This document shows, one piece after another, positions 18,600-24,571 of a stretch of 32,000 nucleotides of DNA. The stretch's first letter is position 1. The number at the start of each line of letters is the position of its first letter. The stretch is taken from the NCBI GenBank assembly GCA_030614005.1, contig JAUWKS010000024.1, forward strand, positions 16,166 through 48,165, given 5' to 3'. The DNA comes from Candidatus Heimdallarchaeota archaeon (GTDB taxonomy: Archaea > Asgardarchaeota > Heimdallarchaeia > JABLTI01). The notes below the pieces were generated by a model. The model was not told where the DNA came from, ran no database searches, and saw only the letters and a program-made list of their open reading frames with translations. The position numbers were made by a program, and so were the translations under genes.

Positions 18600-19493
18600 T
18601 CACTTCATCAACCAATTTTTATCAAATTCGCCAATATAACAGAGACAAACTGATTTTGGGCCTGAAATAACACAACAAATATTTCCAGCTTCGTACAAAT
18701 GAATGTTTCTACTTTGAGTATTAACTTTTTGTATTTCATCAAAAATTTCCTGTGCTAAACCTTGATTTCTAACATGATAAAGAAATACTTCATTTATTTC
18801 AGTATGCTCAAGAATTTTTTTACCATATCTCGCCATCTGAGTAACAACATTCTTTTCCCCTTTAATAACACCAAGTGGAATTACAATGCCATCTTCAAAC
18901 GAAACAACAGGAGACATGTTAAAAGCTGAAGCCAATATTTTTTTGGCGCGACCAATGCGACCTTGTTTATATAAATAATTGAGATCCTTAAGTACAAAAA
19001 CATTGTTAACTCTTGGTTGGATGTAAGTTAATCTTTCAAGAATCTCTTTTTTTGTTTTTCCTTCTTTTGCCATTCTTGCTGCTTCTAATACTTGTATTCC
19101 TATACCCATCATAGCTTGTTTAGAATCAAAGATAGTAATATCCTTACCAGGAAAATGATTTTGAACAATCTTTTGAGCGCTTTCAACGGTGGCAGATAAT
19201 TTTGCTCCAACAAAAATAGCAATAACTGAATCTGAGATACTTAGAGCTTTTTCAAAGGCTTCAACAAAAAGACCTGGTGAAGGGACAGAAGAAGATGGAA
19301 GGTATTCTTTAGATATTTTTTCAAGTTTAATATGGAAATCTTCAGTTGAAATCTCACATTTATCTCTGCCCCAAAGCTTGTAGATTTCACTACCAAAAAT
19401 AATTCTAAGAGGAACAACAGAGATATCATATTTTTTGATTATTTCATCCGAAAGATCGCTTGATCCATCGGTAACAATAGCTACTTTAGACAT
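18600..19493 (-). CDS. degV: DegV/FakB family fatty-acid-binding protein
   Basis: AIVTDGSSDL, SSSVPSPG, LSATVESA, DSKQAMMGIG, LNYLYKQGRIG, C-terminal VISGPKSV. Confidence 0.88.
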   Translation of the reverse strand: MSKVAIVTDGSSDLSDEIIKKYDISVVPLRIIFGSEIYKLWGRDKCEISTEDFHIKLEKISKEYLPSSSVPSPGLFVEAFEKALSISDSVIAIFVGAKLSATVESAQKIVQNHFPGKDITIFDSKQAMMGIGIQVLEAARMAKEGKTKKEILERLTYIQPRVNNVFVLKDLNYLYKQGRIGRAKKILASAFNMSPVVSFEDGIVIPLGVIKGEKNVVTQMARYGKKILEHTEINEVFLYHVRNQGLAQEIFDEIQKVNTQSRNIHLYEAGNICCVISGPKSVCLCYIGEFDKNWLMK

Positions 19494-19736
19494 TGAGTAA
19501 TAAACTCCTAATAGATAGAATAGTTAGTAATTAATTAAATAATAGTAAAGGAGATTTATATTTTATTTGGTTTACTTGTTTTTCAAAAAATCTGGCGACA
19601 GAAGTAACAGAAAAAGATGAAAAGGAATTTAGAGAAGAAATAAAAGACTTCACTAACTCTAAAACCAACAAAAAATTATCAGAAAAAACAAAGAATGAAC
19701 AATAGGATATAGAAAACATAAACGAAGAAAAGGAAA

Positions 19737-19770
19737 TGGTGGCTGAGGCGGAATTCGAATCCGCAATCAC
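19737..19770 (-). repeat. tRNA 3'-end repeat R1
   Basis: TGGTGGCTGAGGCGGAATTCGAATCCGCAATCAC; 2 mismatches to consensus TGGTGGCCGAGGCGGAATTCGAATCCGCGATCAC. Confidence 0.92.
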
Positions 19771-19831
19771 TAAAATATTTATACTTTATTTAATCCAATA
19801 ATCGCTCTAATATTTCTACAACACTAAATTC

Positions 19832-20356
19832 TTATGCTAGTTGTTTTAAAACTTTTAAATCGAGGGATTCCTTATAATTTAACAGAATATTTTTGACATC
19901 AGTAATATCCTTTTCACTACGCATACCTGGCAGAAGTTTAGCAGTAATTTGTAATTCGGGGGTTGTAAGCCAAATATCTAAATCATCTAAAATTGTAATC
20001 TTAACTTTATTTGACATTGTCACTCTATCCAGAGAAGAATAAACCCCTTTAAAATCTACACGATAAAAGTAAGTTTGGGTATCAAAAGCAGTAATATGAC
20101 TTTTCTCAAGTAATCCTTGTAGCATGTCTTCTTTAATTAATTCAATATTAGAAGAGTGAAGACAATTTGTTAAATTTTTTATTTGGTCAGTATTCTTGAA
20201 GGATAAATCAACAATTACATCCAAATCTTCTGTTGAGCGAACAGAACCATAATAACTAGCTGCAATGGCACCAACAATACAGTAATCAATGGAAGCTTCA
20301 TTCAAACAATGAACAGTGCGTCGTATTAGTCGTTCAAAGGCGCCTATTTCGCTCAC
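19832..20356 (-). CDS. Minimal nucleotidyltransferase (DUF6036/MNT-like); probably truncated by a premature TAA (full end at 19790)
   Basis: YCIVGAIAASYYGSVRSTEDLDVIV (GxxxxxxxG...DxD) and KD..D. After the TAA the frame continues EFSVVEILERLLD*. Confidence 0.75.
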   Translation of the reverse strand: MSEIGAFERLIRRTVHCLNEASIDYCIVGAIAASYYGSVRSTEDLDVIVDLSFKNTDQIKNLTNCLHSSNIELIKEDMLQGLLEKSHITAFDTQTYFYRVDFKGVYSSLDRVTMSNKVKITILDDLDIWLTTPELQITAKLLPGMRSEKDITDVKNILLNYKESLDLKVLKQLA

Positions 20357-20516
20357 GATCTCTCACCAAATTTTTCAAATAATCAATACGTTCTGCAGGA
20401 CTAAGGGTAGAAAAACGAGCTTTAAGTGAACTAAGAAAAATAGCTAAAGCTGTGTTGGATAAATCACAAGTGATTTTTACTCGTTGTTCCGGAGATAACT
20501 TGGATTCAGGTGGCAA
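20334..20516 (-). CDS. Small helical partner protein upstream of the nucleotidyltransferase (toxin-antitoxin-like pair)
   Basis: 60 aa, LSPEQRVKITCDLS...LKARF...SPAERI; overlaps the nucleotidyltransferase start by 23 nt. Confidence 0.6.
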   Translation of the reverse strand: MPPESKLSPEQRVKITCDLSNTALAIFLSSLKARFSTLSPAERIDYLKNLVRDRERNRRL

Positions 20517-20585
20517 AATAAGAAACGTCCATATAAAGAATATAACTAAAATGAATATAAAAATTTAGTAGGCATTAGGAGAAAA

Positions 20586-20619
20586 TGGTAGCCGAGGCGG
20601 AATTCGAATCCGCGATCAC
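20586..20619 (-). repeat. tRNA 3'-end repeat R2
   Basis: TGGTAGCCGAGGCGGAATTCGAATCCGCGATCAC; 1 mismatch to consensus. Confidence 0.92.
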
Positions 20620-20661
20620 AATAGAAAATTAATAAGATGAATTATCAAAAATCAATTTTTC

Positions 20662-21324
20662 TTAATCGATTTCATCTAGCGCAGGAGATTCCAAAACATA
20701 GTCATCGACTTCTATGATTTCAGTATCTGTAGTTGATTCATCAAATAACTGGTGGTATTCTTCATTATCTATATCATCAAGCGGGTTGGAAACTCTCAAT
20801 GGATCAAATAAGTTAATTTCAGAAATCGCTGCAAAGAATCCTATTACTATCATAAGTCCAAAAATGATTGTCACTGAATAGAACAGCACACCTAATTTGT
20901 AAATGAGTGAAAATTTGTTTAGGTGGTTAATGAAATTAGCAAATAGCATCATTGCGATAAAACCTAATATGCCGCCAATCATATGAAGACCCCTTGTAAC
21001 TCTCCAAATAATTATTTGAGGTTTATAGGAGAAATTTTGAGAACGTGTCATTTGACCAACAGTAGTTGAAAATAAACCTCCGAGAATAAAGCCGGTAAAG
21101 AAAAGCGGTTTTATTGCAGCGGAAAAACCCCAAACAACATCATATGTATAACTTGTTGTTTCATATGTATGAGTATCCAATATAACAGAATAACCCCAAA
21201 TCCAGATACTTTCACTTAGGTTAAGTAGTTCACCTGAAGCAACTGGTAGAAGAAATATCAATCCAATTGAGAGATTTAGAAAAGGATACAATATACTAGC
21301 TATTTTAGGAAATTCGAATTTCAT
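20662..21324 (-). CDS. Hypothetical membrane protein (about 4 TM, acidic C-terminal tail), cassette cargo
   Basis: 220-aa ORF filling the R2-R3 interval; stop 42 bp from R2. Confidence 0.7.
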   Translation of the reverse strand: MKFEFPKIASILYPFLNLSIGLIFLLPVASGELLNLSESIWIWGYSVILDTHTYETTSYTYDVVWGFSAAIKPLFFTGFILGGLFSTTVGQMTRSQNFSYKPQIIIWRVTRGLHMIGGILGFIAMMLFANFINHLNKFSLIYKLGVLFYSVTIIFGLMIVIGFFAAISEINLFDPLRVSNPLDDIDNEEYHQLFDESTTDTEIIEVDDYVLESPALDEID

Positions 21325-21432
21325 TTAATGACACTTTCTTTATACCAGTAATAACAGTTGATTTAATATTTTTTGGTAAAAAGAAATGATCAAACAATTG
21401 GATATAAATAATACAAGATGAATAAATTAAAA

Positions 21433-21466
21433 TGGTGGCCGAGGCGGAATTCGAATCCGCGAACAC
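21433..21466 (-). repeat. tRNA 3'-end repeat R3
   Basis: TGGTGGCCGAGGCGGAATTCGAATCCGCGAACAC; 1 mismatch to consensus. Confidence 0.92.
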
Positions 21467-21535
21467 CATCTCCAAAAATAAAAAACCAAGTACTACTGCT
21501 CCTTGTTTATAAATGGAGGTTTTTATACTTGCATC

Positions 21536-21553
21536 CACTTAAGCTGTTAAGTG
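21536..21553. promoter_or_regulatory. Candidate autoregulatory operator of the cassette ArsR gene
   Basis: CACTTAA-GCTG-TTAAGTG, perfect 7-4-7 inverted repeat, just downstream of TTTTTATA (21520-21527) and upstream of an AGGTGAGG SD. Confidence 0.5.
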
Positions 21554-21590
21554 CTTATTTGGTATTACACCACAAACACAAGGTGAGGAT

Positions 21591-21875
21591 ATGTCAGAAG
21601 AAACAATGGTTATTGAGCCAGGCAGAACGAGTATAGTAGCTAAAGCTCTTAAAGCCAAGAGTCGCGTGATGATACTCAAAATCTTATATGAAGAGGATAT
21701 GAACATCACTAGTTTAGCTGAAAGGATGGGTATGTCAATTGCTGCAGTCAGCGAACACATCAAGATTCTAGTGGAGGCAGGGCTGACTACCATTCACTAC
21801 AAATCAGGCATGCATGGTGGTGTAAAGAAGGTTTGCAGTACTAATACCAAGAATGTTGTGTTTAACATAAGGTAG
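21591..21875 (+). CDS. Stand-alone ArsR-family wHTH regulator, cassette cargo
   Basis: AKALKAKSRVMILKILYEEDMNITSLAERMGMSIAAVSEHIKILVEAGL...GMHGGVKKVC; strong SD. Confidence 0.85.
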   Translation: MSEETMVIEPGRTSIVAKALKAKSRVMILKILYEEDMNITSLAERMGMSIAAVSEHIKILVEAGLTTIHYKSGMHGGVKKVCSTNTKNVVFNIR

Positions 21876-22035
21876 TTTCCAACATTCGTTCTTTCATTTA
21901 ACTATACGGACTGCAGAGTCTATAATCCAAAACAACTATTTACTTGTTAGCCAAACGACTTTTTGATTGTTTGGAATGTTTTCTGGACGACTTTCATAGA
22001 CAACCAATAGAGAGAGAAAAGAAGGGAAAAAATAT

Positions 22036-22069
22036 TGGTGACCGGGCCGAAATTCGAATCCGCGATCAC
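22036..22069 (-). repeat. tRNA 3'-end repeat R4 (chimera of tRNA-Pro and repeat consensus)
   Basis: TGGTGACCGGGCCGAAATTCGAATCCGCGATCAC; tRNA-Pro-type bases at positions 10 and 12, repeat-type bases at 20, 28 and 33. Confidence 0.88.
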
Positions 22070-22134
22070 TAAGATATAAGTTTGTCATTTATGAAACAAT
22101 TAAGAGATCAGGGAATCTAACCACATAAATTTGA

Positions 22135-22770
22135 TTATCTAGTGAACCTTTTTTCGTTCTTCTTTTCATTATCTAAAATTTGTTGTACTAACTCAACAAT
22201 AAAAGTTGAAGGATTACTATCAAGAGATAAGAGGTCAACACCTAAATCACGGTGTTGTCTATTTAATTTCCTAGCATTTATTATCGCACCACCTCTCTTA
22301 TCAAAAAGTGATTCAAAATACTCTTTCGATTTGTTATAGTTTGGAATATAATTAGTGAGTTTTTGAAGCAAATTAGACGTAGAGATTGGTGTATAGTAAT
22401 ACGTGTAATGAAGTAAATACCACAACTCGAAACAAGGATTTGATAAACAGAGATTGATATTAGATAGCTCAGCTGATTGTCTTGCTGCGGCAAGATTTGC
22501 AGGAGTATTATTATCGGCATCAAAAACACACCAAACTTGATCTCCATAGTCGAAATCTATCCCATATCTTTGTATTTGACTTATAGCAAATTTCACCAAA
22601 TTTCGTGGATCCGTAACATTTGTATTAGGAGTTAATATCATTAAACCATTATTCCGTTTCCTGTATTTATTAAAATACAACCGTTCAGTTTTTTGACCTT
22701 CACAAATTATTAGGAACATTGCGACTTGTTCTCGAACGCTAGTTTTTCTTGTGGAATAGCCTTTTGCCAT
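22135..22770 (-). CDS. rloB: RloB-family TOPRIM-like protein (AbiLii-like)
   Basis: FLIICEGQKTERLYF, VWCVFDAD, LSNPCFELWYLLHY, NPST. Confidence 0.88.
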   Translation of the reverse strand: MAKGYSTRKTSVREQVAMFLIICEGQKTERLYFNKYRKRNNGLMILTPNTNVTDPRNLVKFAISQIQRYGIDFDYGDQVWCVFDADNNTPANLAAARQSAELSNINLCLSNPCFELWYLLHYTYYYTPISTSNLLQKLTNYIPNYNKSKEYFESLFDKRGGAIINARKLNRQHRDLGVDLLSLDSNPSTFIVELVQQILDNEKKNEKRFTR

Positions 22771-22783
22771 TTTAACCCATTCC

Positions 22784-24007
22784 TCACCCAGTTATGAATG
22801 GTAAAGCACCATATCTTCCAGCGAGATACCCTCGCTCAATGTCTTTATCTTTCCTTGGACTAAATTCAGTCAACGAAAAGAGGTCAGTATTTCCATTCTC
22901 GTTATTTTTTTCAGTAAACCATACTTGATCTCTTCTAAACAGAGTCTGATCTAACAAATTGGTATTATGAGTAGTAAATATTAGCTGTGCATTTGTATTA
23001 AGATTACTTTGATTATGAAAGAGTTCAATTAAAAAAACATTCAATTTATGATGTAATTTGATATCCAATTCATCAATAACGATAATACGATTATGCTCTA
23101 AGGCATCTAACCAAGGACCAATTAGTGAGAAGAATCTTTTTGTACCTTCAGATTCTTCATCAAAGTAATCAAATAAAACACCTTTATGGGAGGTTTTTAT
23201 ATTGATCTCTTCTAGTGGCAAAGCTTTTACTAAGCTAATATAACTTCTAATTTCGGGAGGTAAGGATTCAGGGATTTTATTCAATAACTTTGAGTTTATT
23301 TTAATATCGACTAAAGCTAAATCAGCTTCTGATAATATTTTCAAAACTCGTTCCTTATTCTTGATACTTTTTTGAATATAAGCTAAGGTCGGTCGTTCAG
23401 AACCAATAGGTTGATATGAACTAATGAATTGTAATTGATCTTTAAACCAATAAAAAACAGGAAAAACAACTTTATAATTCTCTTGAGTAGCTTTTGATAA
23501 ATAAAGAGTATTATCTAGGGTTCGTTCAGCGATGAAGCTCTGAATGTTTTTATCTCGAGTAAATCGAAAGACATCCTTTTTTCTTTCGAAGAGCAATGCT
23601 CGTCGGGTATTGCCATACCAGTAAAGGGTTTCTTCGAGAATTTCTGCCCCATTAAAAGCTACTGAGTAATCGTATTTAATATTATTTTGAATGAAGATGA
23701 TTTGAAATTTGGTAGGAATTTGCAAACAATTCTTATCTAACTTGAAAGGCTCATACTTTATTCCCTGACCTTTCTGATGATTGTGCGAATTGAGAACAAG
23801 TGCTTTGAAGAAATAAAAAGCCTTAATTACATTGCTTTTACCAGAAGCATTAGCACCATAAATCACCGCACTACGTAATAAATTATCTGTCTTGAAACCA
23901 TTCGTAATAAGATTCTTCTGTAAAGAGTTATCTTTAGTAGCAACCATACTAAAAACTACTTTATCTTTGATAGACCGAAAATTCTCAATACTAAATTCAA
24001 CCAACAA
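22784..24007 (-). CDS. AAA_21/ABC-type ATPase (RloA/AbiLi-like), partner of RloB
   Basis: MLVEFSIENFRSIKD, IYGANASGKSN, EESEGTKR, IVIDELD, QLIFTTHN, RRDQVWF, YLAGRYGA; 13 bp upstream of rloB. Confidence 0.88.
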   Translation of the reverse strand: MLVEFSIENFRSIKDKVVFSMVATKDNSLQKNLITNGFKTDNLLRSAVIYGANASGKSNVIKAFYFFKALVLNSHNHQKGQGIKYEPFKLDKNCLQIPTKFQIIFIQNNIKYDYSVAFNGAEILEETLYWYGNTRRALLFERKKDVFRFTRDKNIQSFIAERTLDNTLYLSKATQENYKVVFPVFYWFKDQLQFISSYQPIGSERPTLAYIQKSIKNKERVLKILSEADLALVDIKINSKLLNKIPESLPPEIRSYISLVKALPLEEINIKTSHKGVLFDYFDEESEGTKRFFSLIGPWLDALEHNRIIVIDELDIKLHHKLNVFLIELFHNQSNLNTNAQLIFTTHNTNLLDQTLFRRDQVWFTEKNNENGNTDLFSLTEFSPRKDKDIERGYLAGRYGALPFITG

Positions 24008-24030
24008 AGTAAAACACCGTTAAATGTCAT

Positions 24031-24053
24031 TTTTTGTGATTTTTTCACAAAAA
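24031..24053. promoter_or_regulatory. Perfect 9-5-9 inverted repeat upstream of the ATPase-RloB operon
   Basis: TTTTTGTGA-TTTTT-TCACAAAAA, 23 bp before the TTG start and downstream of a TTATTAAA box on the minus strand. Confidence 0.5.
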
Positions 24054-24157
24054 CCAAGCTTTAATAATTAGCTTGTTTTATTTAAAGATTATGGAACACA
24101 TGAAGAAAAATATGCAAAAAACAATAGGAAAAAAGAGAAAAGAAGGAAAAAAAGTAT

Positions 24158-24191
24158 TGGTGGCCGAGGCGGAATTCGAGTCAGTAATCAC
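24158..24191 (-). repeat. tRNA 3'-end repeat R5 (T-stem 5' strand decayed)
   Basis: TGGTGGCCGAGGCGGAATTCGAGTCAGTAATCAC; 4 mismatches to consensus, clustered at positions 23-29. Confidence 0.88.
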
Positions 24192-24463
24192 TAGATGTTT
24201 ATTCTTCCAAAACAAGATTAGGGATCAAGGGAAAATATTTGGTCTTTTTATAGATAATCTCAGACATTTAATTGTACAATAATTTGTTGGTAGGTAGTAA
24301 TGAAAAACAGCACTATTACTAAAGAAGAATGTATTGAAATGATGAGTTTAGAGTTTCTTTTATTGAAGGATAATGTTCTCTCTCTCCGGAGATGTAAGGG
24401 ATGTTACTGCAGAGAAGAAAGTAGTAATATTAGGATACAGAAAGAATTGACTGATAAGGGAAA

Positions 24464-24571
24464 TGGTGGCCGGGCCGGAATTTGAATCCGGGATCTCCTA
24501 CTAATTCGCAATTGGGATTTCCTCCCATATTGTCCCAAAGCAGGAATCATACCGTGCTAGACTACCCGGCC
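24464..24571 (-). tRNA. tRNA-Pro: tRNA-Pro(UGG) with encoded CCA and a 31-nt intron
   Basis: Cloverleaf: acceptor GGCCGGG/CCCGGCC, anticodon stem CCTGC/GTAGG with loop TT-TGG-G|A, T-arm CCGGA-TTCAAAT-TCCGG, 3' ACCA; 77 nt mature. Confidence 0.93.
24503..24533 (-). other. tRNA intron at 37/38 with bulge-helix-bulge motif
   Basis: ACAATATGGGAGGAAATCCCAATTGCGAATT. Central helix TTTG/CGAA, 3-nt bulges GG|A and TT|A, outer helix CAAT/ATTG + TGGGA/TCCCA. Confidence 0.9.

Follow-up and report, generated by a model that had tools for sequence, protein, structure and literature searches.

Tandem copies of a tRNA-Pro 3' end in an Asgard archaeal genome as probable hybrid junction scars of integrase-less gene cassettes

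In a Candidatus Heimdallarchaeota genome, a tRNA-Pro(TGG) gene is followed by five copies of its own 3' end, which bound five small units (a to e) at spacings of 306, 2122, 603, 847, and 849 bp, and we consider it probable, at roughly three chances in four, that these repeats are hybrid att-like junction scars of integrase-less cassettes stacked behind the tRNA gene. Under this explanation, the T-arm part of a repeat (about positions 43-65) would ride on the cassette end and copy the G49:C65 version of this tRNA gene that is typical of the genus, and the acceptor end (67-76) would come from the tRNA side of the junction, which would have read CTCGGCC before the newest cassette came. The G49:C65 pairing would have been selected in a real tRNA, inherited by the repeat, and left to decay once off the tRNA, and the adjacent tRNA would differ because the lineage altered its own gene. 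We further infer that cassettes arrive as circles, which a recombinase supplied in trans links to the tRNA or to an older repeat; the crossover would mostly fall close to the T-stem/acceptor junction and so spare the host T-arm. The array itself contains no recombinase gene, and no cassette circle was seen. Direct support comes from the identity of the allele and the polarity of its change, from the decay of the repeats, from one junction placed at 65-67, and from the exchange of cassettes between species.

The window, by which we mean the whole stretch of 32,000 nucleotides analyzed (G000:C8:16166-48165), belongs to a source genome of 3.6 Mb that is 90% complete. In named genomes, matching sites all lie in metagenome-assembled genomes (MAGs) of Candidatus Heimdallarchaeota or unclassified Promethearchaeati, including those with the accession prefix JABLTI01, which we take to be the GTDB group known as Gerdarchaeales. 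The tRNA gene, which has HXXEE and CopD-like genes beside it, appears only when ARAGORN is allowed introns: without them the program reports no tRNA in the window, relaxed settings return only noise, and Rfam has no match at 18-27 kb of the window.

Table 1. Features of the tRNA-Pro(TGG) array (window coordinates) and copies of the related element (locus coordinates).
Feature	Position	Strand	Remarks
tRNA-Pro(TGG)	24464-24571	-	ARAGORN with introns; encoded CCA
Intron of tRNA-Pro(TGG)	24503-24533	-	31 nt, at 37/38
Cassette a	24192-24463	-	272 bp; lacks any ORF of 80 aa; missing from sister strains
R5	24158-24191	-	cassette-side T-arm copy (43-65) with two broken pairs; host acceptor end (67-76)
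Cassette b	22070-24157	-	AbiLi-type AAA ATPase and RloB/AbiLii (Pfam, PADLOC)
AbiLi-type AAA ATPase gene (cassette b)	22784-24007	-	Pfam, PADLOC
RloB/AbiLii gene (cassette b)	22135-22770	-	Pfam, PADLOC
R4	22036-22069	-	hybrid: G49, G57 with host-type G65, C67; G49.G65 unpaired
Cassette c	21467-22035	+	ArsR-type HTH gene 21591-21875, on the strand opposite to the others; end common to L043
R3	21433-21466	-	T-stem intact, G49:C65; G57, T67
Cassette d	20620-21432	-	220-aa ORF 20662-21324; no Pfam match
R2	20586-20619	-	T-stem intact; T67, T72
Cassette e	19771-20585	-	174-aa ORF 19832-20356; no Pfam match
R1	19737-19770	-	T-stem intact; T48, T67, A69 (acceptor mismatch)
DegV cassette, adjoining R1	18600-19736		distal repeat lost in source genome
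DegV gene	18600-19493	-	between repeats in G005 and G006; G010 lacks it here
Element copy (G000:C110)	L015:2831-18816
Element copy (G005)	L029:2926-12723
Element copy	L158
Element copy	L163

The repeats R1 to R5, numbered as tRNA positions 43-76, are 34 nt each and lie on the minus strand (Table 1). Over these 34 nt, R1, R2, and R3 differ from their own consensus at 2, 1, and 1 positions and the adjacent tRNA at 5, exactly reproducing the counts from which the original prediction placed the three closer to one another than to the neighboring gene; the loop TTCGAAT and the A53:U61 pair that it read in them are also correct. Their T-stem is GCGGA/TCCGC, against CCGGA/TCCGG in the adjacent tRNA, and the T-stems of R4 and R5 are broken at one and two unpaired positions, respectively. 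Searching with a 28-nt core at up to three mismatches gave four matches, and none in 100 shuffles. The acceptor strand of R1-R3 had been described as pairing with the tRNA 5' end GGCCGGG through a single G:U, which is true of R3 (and R5) but not of R2, which has a second G:U at T72, nor of R1, whose C4.A69 mismatch means that it could not complete a perfect acceptor stem. The tails 3' of the repeats are pyrimidine-rich like those of tRNA genes (81% and 80%, against 50% upstream), a pattern to be expected had every unit once been the one next to the tRNA.

Judged from sequence, R1-R3 stem from the orthologous Pro(TGG) gene as it usually is in the genus, with G49:C65. The stem GCGGA/TCCGC occurs in eight intact Pro(TGG) genes (congeners G005 and G006 and metagenome contigs L037-L040, L042, and L044), from which the repeat consensus differs by 2-3 mismatches as against 5 from the adjacent tRNA. 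G007, G009, and G011, an outgroup from another genus, have other T-stems, yet they too carry G49:C65, which is present in 10 of 12 congener Pro(TGG) genes as well as the outgroup. C49:G65 is confined to the source genome (G000) and G010, sisters on a SecY tree (support 100/98), and it was therefore the adjacent tRNA that changed and not the repeats: the compensatory swap at 49:65 is real, G49:C65 in the repeats and C49:G65 in the tRNA, but it happened in the opposite partner from the one first supposed. The adjacent gene is a derived allele with C28:G42, A44, and C49:G65, along with C67 (T67 in strains that lack cassette a). The features of the repeats left over from this comparison all occur in real Pro(TGG) genes (G57 in L040, A46 in L042, and T67 in G010), and the metagenomic L040 gene is a single mismatch from the predicted 28-nt core. 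A46 in the G000 and G010 repeats follows the host lineage, and equally fits an older host allele. The claim that the repeats are not simple copies of the adjacent gene thus survives, in that their origin is a different version of a tRNA gene, which the cassettes carry.

Strains without cassette a give the best view of where host and cassette sequence meet. Contigs of three runs from three studies join position 24167 to 24474 of the window, skipping 306 bp that include cassette a; one run (X3) shows the window's form, and another (X1) has the joined form together with a fragment of cassette a. The tRNA and R5 share only about 10 identical bases at the joined end, too few for repeat collapse, and an artefact of collapsed repeats or of the assembly graph is therefore unlikely. 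In the joined tRNA the host T-arm continues through G65 and position 67 is T, and the sequence over 39-76 is that of the G010 gene; that gene starts GGCCGGG and ends CTCGGCC, with a real G6:U67 pair. CTCGGCC is evidently the host's own acceptor strand, as in the sister G010 and the cassette-free strains. It follows from the strain junction that R5 owes its T-arm to the cassette side and its T67 to the tRNA side, and R1-R3 and R5 join a congener-type T-arm with T67 because their acceptor end came from the tRNA side. For cassette a, the switch between host and cassette would then lie between 65 and 67, at the T-stem/acceptor junction; two bases are informative for this placement, and had T67 of the tRNA mutated to C afterwards, the junction could lie anywhere after 65. 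The T-stem/acceptor junction is a described crossover subsite, J, and scars made of tDNA fragments are known (PMC4383910). The strain difference itself could be either an insertion or a loss of cassette a.

Other junctions fall at 50-56, at 58-64, or before 49. The G010 repeat after cassette a becomes host-type between 49 and 57, and R4 does so between 57 and 65. An independent case of mixed alleles is tRNA-Val(GAC), of which the genus has two alleles with nine differing positions from 49 to 66; the arrays behind it (L017, which is G000:C55, and L102, L103, and L104) mix repeats of both, the whole T-arm allele going with the downstream cassette. In G009, cassette b is flanked on both sides by that host's own T-arm. 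The G009 flanks and the scattered switches together imply that the host gene at times supplies a fresh T-arm copy, through other crossovers, conversion, or duplication. A crossover in the T-loop for all repeats was also considered and was dropped because the strain data place the best-mapped junction at 65-67. The copy on C55 had been a candidate Pro repeat in a foreign array, which we rejected on finding that it is the B allele of tRNA-Val(GAC).

The alternative that survives best draws on the same source gene by another route: at each insertion the whole 43-76 block could have been displaced or duplicated from the host tRNA, so that R1-R3 preserve the tRNA as it was before the lineage changed. 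We regard this as possible, if rather unlikely. A single ancestral allele (A46, G49, G57, C65, T67) would cover all the shared differences, the similarity to the tRNA begins at about position 43-44 in most repeats, the G009 repeat tracks the host T-arm on both strands, and the B allele at tRNA-Val(GAC) goes with the downstream cassette. However, after the youngest event that can be mapped, the host T-arm was still on the tRNA and R5 had another, worn one; a simple time series would not give the order in which R4 and R5 stand; and position 57 is G or C in 20 of 28 Pro repeats while it is A in 10 of 12 tRNAs.

The contents of the array support the reading of the repeats as junction scars of mobile cassettes in that cassettes are shuffled between genomes. 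Cassette a also occurs in G010 at a different array position, cassette b stands directly behind tRNA-Pro(TGG) in G009, and a homologue of cassette d (57%) in L037 lies directly behind a G49:C65 tRNA-Pro(TGG). The protein of cassette e is 88% identical to that of G005 and 83% to that of the sister G010, and DegV is 94.6% identical to its G005 counterpart, against 75-80% for the flanking ABC genes. The order also differs between G000 and G010: in the latter, a is directly followed by e, with part of d upstream of a. These patterns of identity and order indicate that cassettes circulate among species, mostly with the G49:C65 allele; the arrays carry defence and regulatory genes between species, and their repeats record the tRNA allele that a cassette met earlier. 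No integrase was found among the ORFs of the array, and no viral contigs were found to carry the site, and thus no attP of an autonomous virus. Our literature search, incomplete in coverage, returned no description of such arrays in Asgard archaea, and the present array offers a base-level, strain-supported junction for integrase-less cassettes in an Asgard lineage close to eukaryotes. As a separate observation, the AbiL cassette (window 22251-24121) is about 1% different in the strains free of cassette a while the neighboring DNA is nearly identical, which suggests a recombined tract.

Among candidates for the activity that joins the cassettes, a tyrosine recombinase acting in trans is our tentative default, by precedent; homology-driven exchange between copies has a smaller but real chance, and a Cas1-like integrase somewhat less than that. 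The only PF00589 match in the genome (L018:4781-5674, at the end of G000:C58) is cut by the contig end and has a cysteine-rich insertion. It belongs to a conserved chromosomal family, 63-89% identical in congeners and kept in at least five of them; a search near the congener copies turned up no tRNA end, and contig C8 has no PF00589 match.

Another account of the repeats, which seems doubtful to us, is that DNA is inserted at tRNA 3' ends by a Cas1-like (casposase-type) integrase that duplicates a stretch of the host on either side, in the way Cas1 duplicates a CRISPR repeat, and that the cassettes are its non-autonomous passengers. The proposal arises from an element family (Table 1) without PF00589 match that starts right after the CCA of tRNA-Pro(TGG) in G005, of tRNA-Ala(TGC) in G000 and G010, and of tRNA-Lys(CTT) in G004, and whose ORFs encode proteins with a putative Cas1 fold, a dead-helicase-like sequence, a DEAD helicase, and a LAGLIDADG-HTH combination; no family B DNA polymerase was found among the element ORFs scanned. 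The 498-aa ORF is predicted to fold like Cas1 or casposase: its model matches 6OPM (Foldseek E 2e-7; Z 17-18, rmsd about 3 over about 245 residues), although the model has a mean pLDDT of 60 and was built from 9 sequences. The likeness is seen only by fold search, and sequence searches of Pfam, PHROGs, NCBIfam, PDB, and Atlas gave none to Cas1. The repeat length of about 34 bp would suit such an enzyme, as would the casposase of Aciduliprofundum boonei, which targets a tRNA-Pro 3' end and reads a T-loop motif (PMC6614799). On the other side, neither cassette nor element ends have terminal inverted repeats (cassette ends were not above shuffles); the Cas1-fold element, or any Cas1 integrase, is absent from the Pro array of the source genome; and Cas1 matches are patchy among the genomes with arrays. 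Host-type copies stand on both sides in G009 and in the Ala array but not for cassette a, whose flanks are not identical, and flanking copies differ where a fresh duplication would match. Should the Cas1-fold protein nonetheless prove to be the enzyme, the system would naturally connect casposons with integrons and CRISPR arrays. A bolder version, in which the tRNA 3' ends of the genus serve genome-wide gene capture by a cryptic Cas1-fold integrase, with copies of CRISPR-repeat length separating traded gene-sized cassettes and T-arm alleles swapped into working tRNAs, strikes us as a long shot.

Read as a stack of junction scars, the array behaves like an integron; the systems nearest to it are tandem tRNA islands and the accretion known for CIMEs, and it falls outside the definitions of integrons, Islander islands, and casposons. 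As in tRNA islands (Islander, PMC4383910), a tRNA is followed by 3' fragments in the same orientation that bound foreign DNA, and one junction here is at the T-stem/acceptor junction. Unlike those islands, the array lines up five or six units of 0.3-2.1 kb, each without integrase and with 0-2 genes, and the scar retains about 22 bp of tRNA-like sequence 5' of the junction; Islander has only four tandems of three or more, in which every member has its own integrase (PMC4383910), and units here carry no tyrosine integrase each. CIMEs in the ICESt1/ICESt3 model (PMC5704250) and the Dehalococcoides ssrA islands (PMC3146451) likewise consist of att-flanked units without integrase, which pile up at a single conserved gene end and are rearranged from strain to strain, and accretion of integrase-less CIMEs provides a precedent (PMC5704250). 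The units of the present array similarly lie in tandem at one gene end, att-flanked and free of integration or transfer genes, with no ICE, IME, or integration module adjoining or in the array; they differ in their archaeal host and in looking like single-gene cassettes rather than decayed large elements. Integrons, including archaeal ones (PMC9668308), share the array of small, mostly co-oriented, shuffled mobile cassettes with defence cargo; the differences are that the sites here are tRNA ends and not attC, that the hairpins lack covariation and the strand bias of a bottom-strand attC hairpin, and that there is no adjacent integrase (IntI). Family 2 casposons (A. boonei, Methanosarcina mazei; PMC6614799) resemble the system in the predicted Cas1-fold integrase of the related element and in the use of tRNA 3' ends, including tRNA-Pro. 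They differ from it in their terminal inverted repeats and solo Cas1, neither of which was found in the array, and the element here occurs at three or more tRNA species.

It had also been proposed that the hairpin formed by each repeat is itself under selection as a recombination (attC-like) or RNA-processing signal, which we now consider improbable. Five pairs are kept in R1-R3, and the center of the repeats (52-63) is somewhat better conserved than the flanks. In an alignment of 27 repeats from five genomes and three metagenome contigs, however, 88% of T-stem cells are paired and covariation is at the level of shuffles (256 and 111 of 500 as high), while 13 intact tRNA genes are 100% paired, change on both sides at four of five pairs, and reach a score attained by 0 of 500 shuffles. 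Relative to the nearest tRNA allele, the repeats carry 16 breaking, 6 wobble, and 2 compensated changes; the T-stem is broken in 11 of 28 repeats and in 0 of 12 tRNAs, and breaks are commonest at 49:65 (8 of 27 repeats), where no double change occurs. The lack of covariation, with breaking changes outnumbering compensated ones and no matching tRNA in the genome, is the outcome that the original prediction itself took to speak against it. G>A changes number 11 and C>T changes 7 in the repeats, so that the hairpin of neither strand is favored. Folding z-scores of 0 to -1.8 are comparable to those of the tRNA's own end, and the most recent mapped event has its junction at R5, where two pairs are broken. 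The hairpin, on these alignments, is decaying and not preserved, and of the proposed signal there stands the part that the repeats are recombination junctions, without selected base pairing. The enrichment of G57 in the repeats (p 0.002) also bears on the hairpin, since G57 turns 53-60 into a perfect palindrome; the excess, absent from the Val and Ala repeats, fits a cassette-borne T-arm, and a preferred palindrome might contribute. The repeats were collected by similarity, are related and not independent, and form a small sample, so that p-values for them are indicative only. The compensated pair in the repeats is thus an inheritance from a real tRNA allele and not a signal, a mostly ordinary answer, which advises comparing congeners before reading selection into a scar.

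The original prediction also named as a source a second tRNA elsewhere in the genome, a Pro isoacceptor with the 5' end GGCCGAG, which we dismiss as scarcely credible: T67 is usual in Pro(GGG) of the genus and the G004 Pro(GGG) has a GCGGA/TCCGC stem, so isoacceptors do exchange or share features, and the assembly is 90% complete, but all three isoacceptors are assembled (Pro(TGG), Pro(GGG) on C63, and Pro(CGG) on C9), neither of the other two has the T-arm of the repeats, Pro(GGG) starts GGCCGGG and has T71, GGCCGAG begins no tRNA of the genome and none of the 5' ends that matched in 60 relatives, and the orthologous Pro(TGG) fits better.

Several observations on other tRNAs accompany these results. 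The tRNA-Pro(GGG) of G004 (L033:2642-2749) is of Pro(TGG) type over 49-67 and keeps T71, and looks like a T-arm transfer between isoacceptors. The working tRNA-Val(GAC) of G008 has the rare allele on a gene and intron otherwise like those of G001, which suggests replacement of the whole T-arm. A second, non-canonical intron in the T-loop is present in tRNA-Pro(GGG) of G000, G001, G006, and G008, and a similar one in tRNA-Val(GAC) of G007 (loci G000:C63:19590-19728, which is L034, and L089, L091, L092, and L077); ARAGORN misses such genes. Orphan tRNA 3' ends also lie behind tRNA-Ala(TGC), tRNA-Leu, and tRNA-Arg (G000:C110:51077-58450, C63:53783, and C7:25152), and the orphan Leu copy differs from the neighboring tRNA and has G57.
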